Shown here: positions 1 through 11,057 of the stretch, one piece after another
Numbering within the stretch: position 1 is the first letter of the stretch
Layout of the letters: the number at the start of each line of letters is the position of its first letter
IMG/VR virus record: IMGVR_UViG_2660238462_000004
Strand: one strand, 5' to 3'
Source: a virus
Lineage: Duplodnaviria > Heunggongvirae > Uroviricota > Caudoviricetes
Length of the DNA: 21,318 nucleotides
The notes under the pieces: generated by a model
Seen by the model: only the letters and a program-made list of their open reading frames with translations
The model's database searches: none
What the model was told of the DNA's origin: nothing
Position numbers and translations under genes: made by a program

Positions 1-57
1 TCAGCAGAACTGATATAATATCTGACCGTCATTTCTGGCTCTTTCTTTTGTTCTGCT

Positions 58-67
58 NNNNNNNNNN
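58..67. other. Assembly gap (run of 10 N)
   Basis: Literal run of n in the sequence; flanking segments are not demonstrably contiguous. Confidence 0.97.
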
Positions 68-492
68 TCGCGATGAAAATCCGGCATCTCAATCCCCGCC
101 AGATGATAAGCATCCCGGAACAGCGTGTAACAGTCCGTCACCCCGTGTTCAAAGCGCCGCCCGGTGAGATGCGGCACACAGCGGAACTTATGAATCGTCC
201 CCCGGCAGACCAGCCACCACGGCAAATCACTCTGCACCTGCAGCCGCCGGTCGGCCTCACTCAGCCAGGGCAGACCACCGGGGTGGCTGTGGACCAGCGC
301 CACAATCTCACCCTGCATTTCTGCCTGCAGCCAGTCTTCCGGCGACATACGGAAATACGCCTCCGGCTCACCGGAGATATTCACGCAGGGGAAATATCTT
401 TCCCCCTCCGGCGTGCTTACCACGAAGCCGCACGACTCCGCTGGCGCACATCGCCGGGCGTGCGCCAGAATCGCTGATTCTGTCTGTGTCAT
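68..492 (-). CDS. K: Tail assembly protein K, N-terminal fragment (JAMM/MPN domain), truncated by the gap at 58-67
   Basis: Minus-strand translation MTQTESAILAHARRCAPAESCGFVV...IVALVHSHPGG...DFHR matches my recollection of lambda gpK almost residue for residue; the HSHPGG motif is JAMM-like. ATG at 490-492. The 3' end is lost in the N run. Confidence 0.85.
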
Positions 493-2141: not shown

Positions 2142-3224
2142 TTAGAACTGGTAAACCATACCTACAGCAACGATATCATCGGTAGCAACGCCAGATGCTT
2201 TCGTGAAATCGCTCTTATCAATCAGGTTGATTTTGTAATCAACAAAAGTGGACATATTTTTGTTGAAGTAATAGGTTGCACCTACATCAATATATTCAAC
2301 CAAGTCCTGATCACCCCACGCACCCAAGTCTTTTCCTTTAGATTGCAGGTAAGCAACGGACGGACGCAGACCGAAGTCGAACTGATATTGTGCAACTACT
2401 TCGAAGTTTTGTGCTTTGTTGGCAATATGGTTATTACCAAAAACAGTCATGTTCTGGGTTTCAGAATAGGTGGTAGCCAGATAGATGTTGTTCGCATCAT
2501 ATTTCAGACCAGCTGCCCATACTTCAGCATTTTGACCAGATGCATTCAGGCTGTTGTTACCGTAGATAACCTGATTATTAGTGCGGTCAGATTTAGCATA
2601 GGTTGCACCTACACCGAATCCTTCATACTCATAAGTAGTGGAGAAACCGAAACCATCACCATTAGCTTCAGTTACGTCAGTGCGGTCATTTTTACCCTGA
2701 TACTGAGCAGCAAAGTTCAGACCATCAACCAGACCAAAGAAGTCATTGTTACGATAAGTTGCAACACCTGTGGTGCGACCAGTCATGAATACATCTGTTT
2801 GGGTCCAGGTATCGCCACCGAATTCTGGCAGAACGTCGGTCCATGCACCAATATCGTATGCTACACCGTAGTTACGGCCATAATCGATGGAGCCGTAGTC
2901 ACCGAATTTCAGGCCAGCGAAGGCAAGACGGGTTTTATCTTTGGAGGAACCTTGAGATTCAGCGCGGTTGCCTTTGAATTCATATTCCCACTGACCGAAA
3001 CCAGTCAGTTGATCGTTGATTTGGGTTTCACCTTTGAAGCCAAGACGGGCATAAGTAGTATCACCATCATCTGCATCATTAGAGGAGAAGTAGTGCTTAG
3101 CATTAACTTTCCCGTACAGATCCAGCTTGTTACTGTCTTTATTATAAATTTCAGCTGCCTGAGCAGACATCGCCATCAGTACTGATGCAGCTACAGCAGA
3201 AATTGCCACTGTTAATTTTTTCAT
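2142..3224 (-). CDS. nmpC: Outer-membrane general porin, OmpC/OmpF family (NmpC/OmpD-like prophage porin)
   Basis: 360 aa from ATG at 3222-3224: signal peptide [23 protein letters not shown], then [23 protein letters not shown]..., C-terminal ...VAVGMVYQF (terminal Phe typical of beta-barrel OMPs). The six-frame ORF extends 20 codons further upstream but the signal peptide fixes the start. Confidence 0.9.
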
Positions 3225-3592
3225 CGTGAGCCCTTTTTTTGAACTATTATTAAAAAATGATGTCACTGCGCGATAAATATTCATCTAATCAATGTGATTA
3301 TTTCAAGATGTAAGTTTTGGTTTCTCATTTGATTTGTGAAGTAGATCTCTATTTTTATCTGAACTTTTTCTATCGAATCCTATTCATGGCTCTTGGCTGA
3401 ATAAAAATAAATCTATTAGCCAATTTATATTAATGGCTGTTATTTATAAGTGCTCTATAATTTGAAGATTCAATTTAAACCAGCTAAAAATAACGCTGGA
3501 AATTATTTGTTGGTTATTTGTTGAGATTTGCTTATGTATTTGTAGTGGTGTTTTCAATACTCGGTAGCATTCTCGCAAATATCATTTAGTGG

Positions 3593-6117: not shown

Positions 6118-6146
6118 TTGCTATGGTTGGTTAATCATGCGTTAAT
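6118..6146 (+). promoter_or_regulatory. Candidate cspA-like promoter driving a long 5' UTR
   Basis: ttgcta (6118-6123), 17-nt spacer, gttaat (6141-6146), in an AT-rich upstream region; predicted leader ~145 nt to the csp ATG, comparable to the cspA leader. Confidence 0.35.
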
Positions 6147-6297
6147 GGTGTTCTGGTTTGTTACAAAATTATCTGAAGCAGTCATTGTTATAATTTTATT
6201 ATTTGTACCTCTTGAGATTTCCTTGTTGGTTTTTCTCTCTGATATTTTTTTTCGGACCATTCTGCCCAAGGGCTAACTTCTTCAAAAGGTAATAATG

Positions 6298-6510
6298 ATG
6301 TCTAACAAAATGACTGGTTTAGTGAAATGGTTTAACCCTGAAAAAGGTTTTGGTTTCATCACGCCGAAAGATGGTAGCAAAGATGTGTTTGTCCATTTCT
6401 CAGCTATTCAGAGCAACGATTTCAAAACGTTAACTGAGAATCAGGAAGTCGAATTTGGTATTGAGAACGGACCTAAAGGCCCCGCGGCTGTTCATGTTGT
6501 GGCACTTTGA
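6298..6510 (+). CDS. cspI: Cold-shock protein, CspA family (CspI-like)
   Basis: 70 aa [70 protein letters not shown] with RNP1/RNP2-like motifs (KGFGFI, VFVHF); SD aagg 8 nt upstream. Confidence 0.9.
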
Positions 6511-6709
6511 GGTAGAAAATATTACAAACCATATTCACTTTAGATGCCCGTGTTGCCATGGTTCTCAGTATAGAACATCATCTTTTGATGTTTCTGACAG
6601 GAATCCTTTCGGGGCAAAATGTATCTTTTGTAAATCAATGATGATTACATTTGATAATATTTCACAATACTTAAATGTTAGCCGTCTATCGTTAGATTTA
6701 AGAAAGTGA
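6494..6709 (+). CDS. Small zinc-ribbon protein (YnfQ/YmcF-like) downstream of csp; start codon uncertain
   Basis: Frame encodes ...[57 protein letters not shown] with CxCC...CxxC. The first ATG (6494) lacks an SD and overlaps csp; a GAGG (6509-6512) lies 8 nt upstream of an in-frame ATT (6521), which would give a 62-aa product. Confidence 0.5.
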
Positions 6710-7455: not shown

Positions 7456-7652
7456 ATTACCGAATAGGTATAAATCTCGATTGTCGATGGTATTGGTTGT
7501 GTGACAATACCTAGTCTTTCCGGTATGCCTGAAGAGAATACAAACGACAGATTATGTAAGGGAAACGCGCTGAATCTTTAACTCTTTCATGCTGAGTGAT
7601 TTGACGTTATATTTTTAGCCGTAAGTGAAGAGCAAACGCATGGAGCGACAAA

Positions 7653-7859
7653 ATGCATAAAGATCAATACACTGATGCCCCCTCCCAGGAGCAGGTTCGT
7701 GTAAAAACTATGCTTAATAGCACCATTTCGATGGGTTACCCGGATGTTGTAATTGCATGTATAGAACATCAAGTGTCTCTGGAAGCATTCAGGGCAATTG
7801 AGGCCGCGTTAGTAAAGCACGATAAGAATACGAAGGATTATTCCCTGGTGGTTGACTGA
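7653..7859 (+). CDS. Hypothetical 68-aa protein upstream of the packaging genes (possibly YlcI/YnfO-like)
   Basis: ATG with SD ggag 7 nt upstream; [68 protein letters not shown]; not recognised with certainty. Confidence 0.4.
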
Positions 7860-8199
7860 TCACCATAACTGCTAACCATTCTGACCATTTCACAAGTGAC
7901 AGAGTCAATATCGTATTCTGTCACTGTCAGGCTAATACAGCAATGCAATTCAACTACAGCAATGCCTCGTATTTAGGTGAATTTACAATATCGTCCAGTT
8001 CGGATGCCGGCTGCATTTCTGAAGATAAGGCATTTCGGTTCTCGTATTTTCCCCTCATGCTCGTCAGTCCTGCGCGTAGTAAGAAACAGGACACTCACAC
8101 TAATTTGTGTGGGCATGCTGTGATGTCCTTCTGAATTATCCCCATGCCATTATGTAAAGCTCTGTTTCAGATGCTCGTCACGGTTGTCAGGCTGTCGGG

Positions 8200-8290
8200 T
8201 CCTCCCAGTGGGGGTCCCTGCCACGGGGCGGGAGCGTCGCGGAAAAAGGCTAGTTTTTGCATTTCCATGGCGGCGGCAGCATGTTTGGTA
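8200..8290. other. Candidate cos / packaging-initiation region
   Basis: GC-rich island (ggggtccctgccacggggcgggagcgtcgcgg ... catggcggcggcagcatg) in an AT-rich intergenic region, ~180-200 bp upstream of the terminase small-subunit start, as lambda cosN lies ~190 bp upstream of Nu1. The gggcgg...cgcgg motif resembles the lambda cohesive-end region. Confidence 0.3.
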
Positions 8291-8421
8291 ATTTATTGAT
8301 AATTAAAAGTTATTTCTCTTTTCAGCTGTACAATATTTTTTTCTCCCTGTCATTAGACTAGTTTGCAATTAATTGAAATATATAAATAAACCTGATTTTC
8401 ACCTGCCAGATGGAGTTGCTT

Positions 8422-8949
8422 ATGTCAAATGTGAGCGGGATCGGTGATGCTTATTACTGGAGTGTTTTTAAAATCGCCGAGGCCTTTGGGCTTCACTGGG
8501 ACACAGTAAAAAAACGGCTCCTCGCGGCCAACACTCCTGTGGCTGCGACTGTCAGGGGGAACCCCGTTTACGCCCTGCAGCATGTCGGGCCTGCCCTGTT
8601 TAGTGTGAAGCATGAGGCAGCAGACTCTGTTCATGATCCATCCCGTATGGAGCCGAAAGAGAGAAAGGACTGGTACCAGTCGGAAAATGAAAGGATCAAG
8701 CTGGAAAAGGAGCAGCGAAAACTCATCCCCGTTGATGAAGTAGTCATCGTCTATTCGTCCATGAGAAAGGCTGTCGTCCAGGTTCTGGAGACAATTCCGG
8801 ATGTTCTTGAACGCGATTGCGCCCTGACTCCTCAGGCCGTTGGCGTTGTACAGCAGGCCATTGATGACCTGCGATACACTCTTCAGGAAAAATCCTACGA
8901 GGCTTGTGCTGCTGAATTAATTCCTGATGAGGAAGGAGAGAGTCTCTAG
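8422..8949 (+). CDS. Terminase small subunit (putative DNA-recognition subunit)
   Basis: 175 aa ending 8 nt before the terminase large subunit; SD ggag 6 nt upstream of ATG 8422; N-terminal region plausibly helix-turn-helix; acidic C-terminus. Assigned mainly by position and size. Confidence 0.6.
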   Translation: MSNVSGIGDAYYWSVFKIAEAFGLHWDTVKKRLLAANTPVAATVRGNPVYALQHVGPALFSVKHEAADSVHDPSRMEPKERKDWYQSENERIKLEKEQRKLIPVDEVVIVYSSMRKAVVQVLETIPDVLERDCALTPQAVGVVQQAIDDLRYTLQEKSYEACAAELIPDEEGESL

Positions 8950-8957
8950 GAGGAATA

Positions 8958-11057
8958 ATGGGTTTTTCATCAGCCCGAAATTTGGGAAGGGACATATCGG
9001 CAGGATTTTCCCCACCACGTCGCATGCCGATTTCGGAGGCTGTTAAAAAATTCATGCGTGTTCCCAAGGGGGCTGGTAACTCGGTGCCATGGGATCCTGA
9101 ACTGACACCCTACATCATTGAGCCCATGAACTGCCTGGCATCGCGTGAATACGATGCGGTGATTTTTGTTGGTCCTGCGCGAACAGGGAAGACCATTGGT
9201 CTGATCGATGGATGGATTGTCTATACCATCGTTTGCGATCCTTCGGACATGCTCGTTGTGCAGATGACCGAAGATAAGGCCCGCGAGCATTCAAAAAAGC
9301 GCCTCGACAGAACGTTCAGAAGCAGTGCGGCGGTAAAGAAAAGAATGAGTCCACGTCGTAATGACAATAATGTCCATGATAAGACGTTCAGGGATGGCTC
9401 GTTCCTTAAAATTGGTTGGCCCTCGGTCAACATTATGTCGTCGTCGGATTACCGGTTTGTCGCCTTAACCGATTACGACCGTTTTCCGGAGAATATCGAC
9501 AGCGAGGGTGATGGTTTCTCCCTGGCCTCAAAACGTACCACCACATTTATGTCCGCCGGGATGACTCTGGTGGAGAGCTCGCCGGGACGTGACATCTGCG
9601 ACAGCAAATGGCGACGTAAGTCGCCTCATGAAGCGCCACCGACGACTGGTATTCTTTCCCTTTACAATCGTGGTGACCGCCGCCGCTGGTACTGGCCATG
9701 TCCGCACTGCGGTGAATATTTTCAGCCAGCCATGGATGCCATGACCGGCTACCGTAATGAACCGGATCCCTTTAAAGCCAGTGAGGCGGCGTATCTACTT
9801 TGCCCGCACTGCAGCGGCATTATCACGGCGGAGAAAAAGCGTGAGCTCAATAGTGCAGGAGTCTGGTTGCGTGAAGGTCAGGTCATTGATTGTAACGGCA
9901 ACGTTTCCGGTGAACCGCGCCGCTCCCGTATCGCCAGTTTCTGGATGGAAGGGCCAGCTGCTGCGTATCAGACCTGGGCGCAACTGGTTTACAAATTACT
10001 GACTGCAGAACAGGAGTATGAAGCGACAGGAAGTGAAGAAACACTCAGGGCGGTTATCAACACCGACTGGGGATTACCTTATCTTCCCCGCGCCAGCATG
10101 GAGCAACGAAAAAGTGAACTGCTTGAGCAGCGGGCAGAGCCAGTTCCTTCCCGCAGTGTGCCGGATGGCGTTAATTTTCTTGTGGCGACAGTGGATGTGC
10201 AGGCGGGACGTCATCGCCGTTTTGTGGTTCAGGTAACGGGCTATGGCAGCCGTGGCGAACGCTGGATTATTGATCGTTACAACATCACGCAGTCATTGCG
10301 CGGTGACAGCGACGGGGAGAGCCAGCGAATTGATCCGGCCAGCTATCCGGAAGACTGGGATGTCCTGCTGACGGATGTTTTTCATAAAAGCTGGCCGCTG
10401 GCCTCCGATCCTTCTCAACAAATGCGACTGATGGCAATGGCGGTGGACTCCGGCGGTGAAGACGGGGTCACTGATAATGCCTATAAATTCTGGCGTCGTT
10501 GCCGTCGTGATGGCCTTGGTAAACGTATTTACCTGTTTAAGGGCGACAGCATCCGGCGCGCAAAACTGATCACCCGTACATTCCCTGATAACACCGGACG
10601 AACGGGCCGACGGGCGCAGGCCGCAGGTGATGTGCCGCTCTGGCTTCTTCAGACGGATGCACTGAAAGACCGGGTGAATAACGCGTTATGGCGTGACTCG
10701 CCAGGTCCCGGCTATGTGCATTTCCCTGACTGGCTGGGGAGCTGGTTTTACGACGAACTGACGTATGAAGAGCGGAGCAGTGACGGGAAATGGAGTAAGC
10801 CGGGTCGCGGTGCCAACGAAGCTTTTGACCTGATGGTGTATGCCGAGGCTCTGGTCATTCTGCATGGATACGAAAAGATCCGCTGGCCGGATGCACCGGA
10901 GTGGGCGAGCCGGGAAACCTGGCTGGAGTGTGTCCCGGACAGTACCGAACCGTCATCCTCACCGGAACCGGTATCCACGCCTGTTAAAAAACAAAAACGG
11001 AAGAAAACAGTAACTGACGATGTTAACCCCTGGCTGACTTCCGGAGGATGGTTATGA
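8958..11057 (+). CDS. Terminase large subunit (gpA family)
   Basis: 699 aa; Walker A VFVGPARTGKTIG; Cys-rich CPHCGEYF and CPHC motifs; strong SD aggagg; placed between TerS and W/portal. Confidence 0.9.
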   Translation: MGFSSARNLGRDISAGFSPPRRMPISEAVKKFMRVPKGAGNSVPWDPELTPYIIEPMNCLASREYDAVIFVGPARTGKTIGLIDGWIVYTIVCDPSDMLVVQMTEDKAREHSKKRLDRTFRSSAAVKKRMSPRRNDNNVHDKTFRDGSFLKIGWPSVNIMSSSDYRFVALTDYDRFPENIDSEGDGFSLASKRTTTFMSAGMTLVESSPGRDICDSKWRRKSPHEAPPTTGILSLYNRGDRRRWYWPCPHCGEYFQPAMDAMTGYRNEPDPFKASEAAYLLCPHCSGIITAEKKRELNSAGVWLREGQVIDCNGNVSGEPRRSRIASFWMEGPAAAYQTWAQLVYKLLTAEQEYEATGSEETLRAVINTDWGLPYLPRASMEQRKSELLEQRAEPVPSRSVPDGVNFLVATVDVQAGRHRRFVVQVTGYGSRGERWIIDRYNITQSLRGDSDGESQRIDPASYPEDWDVLLTDVFHKSWPLASDPSQQMRLMAMAVDSGGEDGVTDNAYKFWRRCRRDGLGKRIYLFKGDSIRRAKLITRTFPDNTGRTGRRAQAAGDVPLWLLQTDALKDRVNNALWRDSPGPGYVHFPDWLGSWFYDELTYEERSSDGKWSKPGRGANEAFDLMVYAEALVILHGYEKIRWPDAPEWASRETWLECVPDSTEPSSSPEPVSTPVKKQKRKKTVTDDVNPWLTSGGWL

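Follow-up and report, generated by a model that had tools for sequence, protein, structure and literature searches.

Genomic context of the site

The window, by which we mean the whole 21,318-nt stretch of DNA analysed, is a lambdoid E. coli prophage in which all genes lie on the + strand except that for a porin (- strand). Upstream of the site described here the order is porin; holin, DUF1327 protein, lysozyme and Rz-like protein; a cold-shock gene; and homologues of ynfN, gnsB and ybcW. Downstream are the small (TerS) and large (TerL) terminase subunits, a head–tail joining protein, a lambda-family portal, a ClpP–capsid fusion and the tail genes. This succession of lysis genes, morons, site, terminase, portal, capsid and tail fits the proposal, made in an earlier note on this DNA, that the right and left arms of the prophage map meet here.

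PGAP leaves the predicted cos region intergenic. The open reading frames at 7943-8134 and 8144-8299 were considered as genes and rejected; neither belongs to a Pfam family or is annotated by PGAP, and they are not conserved in phage cdtI. A promoter and terminator scan of positions 7600-8600 returned nothing, as did Rfam and tRNA scans at the cos site, and a generic repeat finder run over 8150-8520 gave only short AT-rich pairs without evident meaning.

Two of the upstream genes carry features of their own. A full-length Gram-negative porin ORF (2142-3284, - strand; Porin_1 E = 3.7e-153) lies upstream of the holin gene and looks like a prophage-carried nmpC/lc-type porin gene. The prophage also carries a cold-shock gene between the lysis genes and cos, which the annotation of the closest E. 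coli chromosome calls cspI; a full-length Rfam cspA thermoregulator match (109.8 bits; 6140-6556, + strand) covers its cold-shock-domain ORF (6295-6510). Homologous cold-shock genes of phage Tritos are reported as expressed from the prophage.

The terminase genes

The terminase large subunit belongs to the lambda gpA family (Table 1) and shares 24% identity with lambda gpA across some 600 aa (E = 7e-22). In the literature quoted in PMC12315714, the gpA-type TerL group is tied to lambda-type 5' cohesive ends. By analogy with lambda, this is the enzyme expected to nick cosN.

The small subunit is of the DUF1441 type and is annotated as small terminase in the records of phages cdtI and Tritos. 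Its relation to the lambda small subunit Nu1 is distant at best: BLASTP gives no significant match (E = 3.6), and a profile alignment with hhalign (24-sequence profile) is colinear and aligns the HTH regions but is weak (probability 20%, E = 0.0011). The TerS profile, restricted to the N-terminal 67 residues, found only weak, sub-threshold winged-helix matches in the PDB, and PDB sequence searches with TerS and TerL returned no significant matches. A single-sequence AlphaFold model of TerS had a pLDDT of 46.8 and was unusable. The TerS reading frame contains two in-frame ATG codons 12 nt apart, at 8410 and 8422. The second is preceded by GGAG at 8412-8415 and is used by relatives, by PGAP and in the Tritos record, and the cdtI record uses the first; from this sequence context, ATG 8422 appears the likelier start.

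Table 1. Predicted elements of the cos site and the adjacent terminase genes (slashes in sequences mark predicted nicks; bp 1 is position 8226)
Feature	Positions	bp	Strand	Basis or remark
cosQ-like heptamer GGGTCCT	8197-8203		+	identical to lambda 48473-48479
cosN core CG/GGGCGGGAGCGT/CG	8224-8239		+	exact match to CGGGGCGG-N6-CG; aligns with lambda CG/GGGCGGCGACCT/CG
Predicted 12-nt 5' cohesive end GGGCGGGAGCGT	8226-8237		+	8/12 match to lambda
Predicted nick, top strand	8225/8226			
Predicted nick, bottom strand	8237/8238			
I2-like spacer CGCGGAAAAAGGCTAGTTTTTG with poly-dA/poly-dT tracts (A5/T5)	8238-8259	13-34	+	conserved in relatives
R3-like element CATGGCGGCGGCAGCATG, candidate primary TerS-binding site	8266-8283	41-58	+	position close to that of lambda/N15 R3; conservation
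I1-like candidate IHF site TATCAATAAATTA	8289-8301	64-76	-	exact match to WATCAANNNNTTR
Distal cosB region, candidate secondary sites	8318-8409		+	tentative, by alignment to relatives
Distal box tcagctgtaca	8322-8332			tentative
Distal box ccctgtcattaga	8345-8357			tentative
Distal box ttttcacctgccag	8396-8409			tentative
Small terminase subunit, DUF1441	8422-8949		+	Pfam DUF1441 E = 5e-43; alternative start ATG 8410
Large terminase subunit, lambda gpA family (ATPase and endonuclease)	8958-11057		+	Pfam GpA_ATPase 5e-81, GpA_nuclease 1.8e-86

Homology to the lambda cos site

A cos site is where terminase cuts replicated DNA into virion-length genomes. Alignment of the region to the lambda cos, as the earlier note had proposed, revealed base-for-base homology at cosN, at the GGGTCCT heptamer and in the flanks. 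In an ungapped alignment at the nick, lambda reads ...cGGGTCCTttccggtgatccgacaggttaCG/GGGCGGCGACCT/CGCGGgttttcgc and the window reads ...cGGGTCCTcccagtgggggtccctgccaCG/GGGCGGGAGCGT/CGCGGaaaaaggc. Both flanking CG dinucleotides and the CGCGG that follows align without gaps. The predicted cohesive end is identical to that of lambda at 8 of 12 positions, with bp 1-6 all the same and differences at bp 7, 8, 9 and 11.

Natural cosN variation in lambda-like phages was reportedly surveyed by Vahanian et al. in 2017. Among lambda-like cosN sequences, natural differences are common in bp 7-12, as in N15 (bp 9 and 12) and Gifsy-1 (bp 8, 9 and 11), and the CG dinucleotides at both nick positions and cosQ are highly conserved (Feiss and colleagues, PMC4669245). 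The four differences from lambda in the window fit the half of the sequence in which that work reports variation. The same 12-mer is found in PhiR40_1 and phi458; in the literature searched, no relevant paper contained the exact sequence.

Upstream of cosN, the heptamer GGGTCCT occurs once in the window, both strands considered. It ends 22 nt before the predicted nick, compared with 23 nt in lambda. We take the identical lambda heptamer to be cosQ, the packaging-termination signal of that phage, whose coordinates are said to be given by Wieczorek and Feiss (2001). The box reads GGGTCCT or GGTACTCC in all aligned relatives and GGGTCCC in cyanophage Cr-LKS3. The composite pattern GGGTCCT-N(18-26)-CGGGGCGG-N6-CG is present once in the window and in 0 of 100 dinucleotide-preserving shuffles.

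The distance from cosN to the terminase genes is also close to that of lambda. From the predicted nick it is 184 nt to ATG 8410 and 196 nt to ATG 8422; TerS therefore begins at bp 185 or 197, depending on the codon used, and the lambda Nu1 start, at bp 191, falls between the two. The lambda-like spacing described in the earlier note is thus borne out with either start codon.

These features bear on a reading in which there is no packaging site at all: the phage would package by a headful (pac) mechanism, and the GC-rich island would be an unrelated element, for instance a terminator, a regulatory sequence or the small ORF at 8144-8299. A 51-aa ORF does span the site and some phage records annotate hypothetical proteins across it, but this ORF has no PGAP annotation, and cdtI, which retains the cos core, has unrelated sequence in place of the upstream part of the ORF. 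Scans of the site for terminators, promoters and RNA families came back empty, TerL is of the family linked in the literature to 5' cohesive ends, and the homology to lambda cos, as measured by the composite motif, is far beyond chance. We consider this reading extremely improbable.

Base composition and symmetry

The earlier note drew attention to this locus as a compact GC-rich island with partial dyad symmetry embedded in AT-rich sequence. The island is real. GC content in 60-nt segments peaks at 0.75 (8183-8242), and segments with a value of at least 0.733 make up 0.18% of the 21.3-kb window, in three clusters. Downstream, the segment 8286-8409 has a GC content of 0.27, among the lowest 0.7% of 124-nt segments. 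Upstream composition is ordinary (0.45 at 7900-8189), so the description of AT-rich surroundings is true of the right side only.

The strings quoted as symmetric are both present, ggggcgggagcgtcgcgg at 8225-8242 and catggcggcggcagcatg at 8266-8283, and they differ in how well the description fits them. In the 16-bp cosN core, 8 of 16 positions are symmetric (10 of 16 in lambda), a score reached by 11.6% of all 16-mers in the window. Since this is no better than chance, we dropped dyad symmetry as an argument for cos. The second string is moderately symmetric, at 12 of 18 positions, a value matched by 1.25% of the 18-mers in the window. Dyad symmetry is not the informative feature of the site.

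Phage records that begin or end at the site

Positions 7900-8500 were compared by megablast with 50,697 phage records. For phage cdtI (AB285204), the record opens at query position 327, corresponding to 8226 in the window; for phage Tritos (OV696610), the linear record closes at query position 326, corresponding to 8225, and begins with GGGCGGGAGCGT. These record ends are end placements by other groups and may have been set by analogy with lambda. The Tritos paper, which describes a re-annotation of the LF82 prophages, does not mention genome ends, and none of the cdtI, Tritos and HannyBb records annotates a cos feature.

A further record, mEp460_4F5 (LR595868), is broken 5 nt left of the predicted nick. 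This phage comes from a study of temperate coliphages in infant gut samples. Its sequence at cosN reads GGGCGGGAGCGCGG and lacks a 'TC' that is present in phi458, PhiR40_1 and the window. Either the contig end produced an artefact at the cohesive ends, or this cosN is genuinely 2 bp shorter.

Conservation of the layout

A tblastn search with the small-terminase ORF identified 61 phage records, nine of which were aligned on the anchor CG/GGGCGG. All nine share one order of elements: a cosQ-like box (GGGTCCT or GGTACTCC); CCACG/GGGCGG followed by six variable bases and /CGCGG; an A/T-tract spacer (CGCGGAAAAAGGCTAGTTTTTG); a variable, triplet-periodic element at about bp 41-60; a TTGAT core; and TerS at bp 130-200. 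In phage mEp043, anchoring in this way yields the 12-mer GGGCGGCGCGCT, which is identical to the end inferred in print for mEp213 and LLS. That 12-nt end is credited to M. Feiss (PMC12315714).

The same arrangement is found in bacterial chromosomes. A genome scan that sampled one genome per bacterial species yielded 38 loci. In an alignment of 11 Enterobacterales prophages, whose TerS proteins are 53-85% identical to that of the window, the order cosQ, cosN, A/T tract, R3-like element, TTGAT and TerS is kept. The conserved footprints coincide exactly with the cos elements, and the flanks are unalignable. A separate match, contig JAGZPX010000007.1, was binned as a Veillonella parvula MAG; its TerS is 99% identical to that of the window and it shares the cos. 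It is almost certainly a mis-binned E. coli prophage contig.

Identity and extent of the site

The earlier note's central suggestion, that a cos site precedes the terminase genes at the distance seen in lambda, is supported by the homology to lambda, the two record breaks, the conserved layout, the gpA-family TerL and the gene order. Judged from sequence, the segment from about 8197 to about 8410 is very probably (roughly 90%) the cos of an E. coli prophage of the lambda-like Gifsy/cdtI/Tritos type. This reading rests on sequence homology, conservation, record break points and protein families. Points that weigh against it are record ends that may have been set by analogy, a TerS not recognisably related to Nu1, the lack of recognisable R2 and R1 copies and the chance-level symmetry of cosN. 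The positions of the cuts, the 12-nt length, the binding of TerS and IHF and the function of cosQ are predictions by homology to lambda. The interval 8200-8290 originally proposed covers only part of the predicted functional site, which would extend from about 8197 to about 8410.

We infer the length of the cohesive end because the /CGCGG anchor is common to lambda and Cr-LKS3; the value of 12 nt is a prediction because cohesive-end length varies among relatives with DUF1441 terminases (9 nt is reported for Cr-LKS3). The site could be a true cos with another stagger, for example 9, 10 or 14 nt. CG dinucleotides also follow positions 9 and 14 of GGGCGGGAGCGTCGCGG, and the end reported for Cr-LKS3, at 9 nt, belongs to a phage with the same terminase family. 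Relatives differ in the distance from CACG to CGCGG or GGAAAAA: phages of the Stx type have 2 bp less (CACG to GGAAAAA in Stx2_95 and CP-1639), and in Gifsy-2 CCACG and CGCGG are separated by 14 nt of quite different sequence (GGTGGCTTCGGGCT). The mEp460_4F5 record without 'TC' points the same way. Cohesive-end length or sequence may therefore vary within the DUF1441 terminase family. Against a different stagger in the window, the overhang ends just before CGCGG both in lambda, where 12 nt is established, and in Cr-LKS3, for which 9 nt is reported; this anchor gives 12 nt here, and the published inference for mEp213 and LLS is likewise 12 nt. A stagger other than 12 nt thus seems unlikely, and a 12-nt overhang at exactly 8226-8237 is probable.

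The predicted cosB region

In lambda, an AT-rich I2 segment with poly-dA/poly-dT tracts lies between cosN and cosB, and the IHF site I1 lies between the TerS-binding sites R3 and R2 (PMC9026076, PMC4856287). R3 is at bp 50-65 in lambda and at bp 48-60 in N15 (PMC9026076). Elements resembling the spacer, R3 and I1 can be placed in the window in the same order (Table 1). The A/T-tract spacer is kept as CGCGGaaaacGGCTAGTTTT in Enterobacterales relatives and as CGCGGAAGTCGGCAGTTTTT in Cr-LKS3.

The second GC-rich motif, which the earlier note had included in its symmetric island, lies outside the predicted cut site; it is located where the first TerS-binding site of lambda (R3) lies. By this analogy, no other element is as good a candidate for the primary TerS-binding site. 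Relatives with a TerS 53-85% identical to that of the window keep the pattern CAT-G..G.C.GCAGCA.GT, the Cr-LKS3 counterpart reads ATGGGCCGCAGCAT, and more distant TerS types have a different triplet-periodic sequence at this position.

With up to 2 mismatches in 12 allowed, a search for repeats of the R3-like element at bp 69-330 on both strands detected neither an R2 nor an R1 copy in the window. The best match to the R3-like 12-mer in the window has 3 mismatches in 12, lies inside the TerS gene and is probably due to chance. As a control, the same 12-mer search recovered lambda R2 (inverted) and R1 (direct) with one mismatch each, and in both Fels-1 and Stx2_95 it picked up two copies of the R3-like element, one inverted and one direct.

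The candidate IHF site follows the R3-like element. Exact matches to WATCAANNNNTTR occur three times in the window, and with one mismatch allowed the consensus is found 15 times in the whole window against 19.9 expected. The count is not above chance, so only the position and conservation of the match at 8289-8301 carry weight. A TTGAT core is present at the equivalent aligned position in most relatives.

The distal part of cosB is a tentative assignment. In relatives from Providencia, Proteus, Yersinia and Rahnella, the aligned positions are occupied by a distinct inverted pair (GAGGTGACA ... TGTCACCTC) and, just before the TerS start, by the box TCACCTGACAG. The corresponding positions in the window (8322-8332, 8345-8357 and 8396-8409) are degenerate compared with this pair and box.

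Comparison with known cos sites

The window resembles the lambda cos in the order and spacing of its sub-sites: GGGTCCT precedes the nick by about 22-23 nt, to the right of cosN come an A/T-tract spacer, an element at the R3 position and an IHF consensus, in that order, TerS starts about 190 bp from the end, and TerL is of the gpA family. It differs from lambda in the cohesive end (bp 7, 8, 9 and 11) and in the R3-like sequence, which is unrelated to the CGTTTCC-type R sites of lambda and is present without detected R2/R1 copies. The proteins also differ: TerS is a DUF1441 protein without significant Nu1 similarity, TerL is only 24% identical, and the head genes, which include a ClpP–capsid fusion, form a Gifsy-2-type module.

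The closest known phages are nearly identical at the site. From the cosQ-like heptamer to the TerS start, cdtI (AB285204), Tritos (OV696610) and HannyBb (PP925841) show few base differences from the window, and their TerS proteins are 99.4% identical to that of the window. Phage cdtI is unlike the window to the left of cosQ, where its sequence is different, and has one substitution inside the R3-like element (GGCAGCATG to GGCAACATG).

This close match bears on whether the site in the window is active. It could instead be a cos-derived relic, lodged in a defective prophage that no longer forms particles and cut by nothing today. Inducibility cannot be read from the window alone, many E. coli lambdoid prophages are cryptic, and the closest chromosome carries an IS2 insertion near the Q region. 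Against a relic, the sub-elements of the site are all intact and 98-99% identical to those of the isolated phage HannyBb and of Tritos, the second of which forms plaques and virions according to the LF82 paper, and none of the terminase, portal, capsid and tail ORFs is truncated. We regard a relic as improbable.

Gifsy-2 and Fels-1 are more distant. They have a DUF1441-type TerS (39% and 35% identical, respectively) and a cos layout as in the window. For Gifsy-1, mEp213 and LLS, the likeness of the ends (lambda-like cos with Gifsy-type heads) is known from published statements; a query with the Fels-1 cos did not bring up Gifsy-1. The Gifsy/Fels-1-type phages differ in having R3-like elements of the ATCATCATC type. 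In Fels-1 and Stx2_95 the R3-like element is repeated, as an inverted and a direct copy, an arrangement not seen in the window. These differences suggest another packaging specificity.

Cyanophage Cr-LKS3 shares the TerS family (37% identity) and the layout GGGTCCCTCC..CG/GGGC.../CGCGGAAGTCGGCAGTTTTT..ATGGGCCGCAGCAT. Its 5'-extended cohesive ends, GGGCTCGCG (9 nt), are reported as determined (PMC9303873). The record ends ...GGGTCCCTCCagacccccttgaaggccgaCG and begins GGGCTCGCG/CGCGGAAGTCGGCAGTTTTTcgggcctATGGGCCGCAGCATcag, and its left end aligns with position 8226 of the window. It differs from the window in the 9-nt end, in a TerS start 95 nt from the end and in its cyanobacterial host.

Predicted packaging events

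By analogy with lambda, the elements described above suggest the following course of events. After induction, the DUF1441 small terminase would bind cosB, chiefly at the R3-like element, assisted by an IHF-induced bend at 8289-8301. The bound small subunit would place the gpA-type large terminase on cosN, where nicks at 8225/8226 in the top strand and 8237/8238 in the bottom strand would leave 12-nt 5' overhangs (GGGCGGGAGCGT). Packaging would then run rightward through the head and tail genes and end at the next cos on the concatemer, where the cosQ-like heptamer would be needed for the final cut.

A cos site of this sort is of an ordinary, already-known kind, and the understanding of packaging gains nothing new from it. 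Its practical value is in the map. The predicted site fixes the ends of the virion genome, and so gives the correct linear map, for a very common type of E. coli prophage: at least 80% of the segment 7000-10000 of the window is present in 519 of 5,426 complete genomes. The direction of packaging is predicted from the site as well, and the segment from about 8190 to about 8420 would be the minimal fragment that lets a plasmid or satellite be packaged by such phages. A modest remaining interest lies in how DUF1441-type small terminases read their cosB.

Possible packaging specificity classes of DUF1441 terminases

The element at the R3 position (bp 41-60) is triplet-periodic in every lineage, with the forms GGCGGCGGCAGC, ATCATCATCATC, CACCACCAC and GTCAGCAGCAGG, and it changes together with the TerS type. 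Its sequence may reflect distinct classes of packaging specificity among these terminases.

A more specific proposal, which we offer as speculative and on balance doubtful, is that the TerS lineage of the window, Tritos, cdtI and HannyBb forms a separate packaging specificity with a 'simple' cosB. Such a cosB would consist of one GC-rich, triplet-periodic R3-like site (CATGGCGGCGGCAGCATG) and an IHF site, without the R2/R1 repeats seen in Fels-1 and the Stx-phage relatives, and would be read by a DUF1441 TerS whose DNA-binding domain is at most a remote relative of that of Nu1. If this were true, it would be the second natural cosB with a single R site after that of N15, in a different TerS family.
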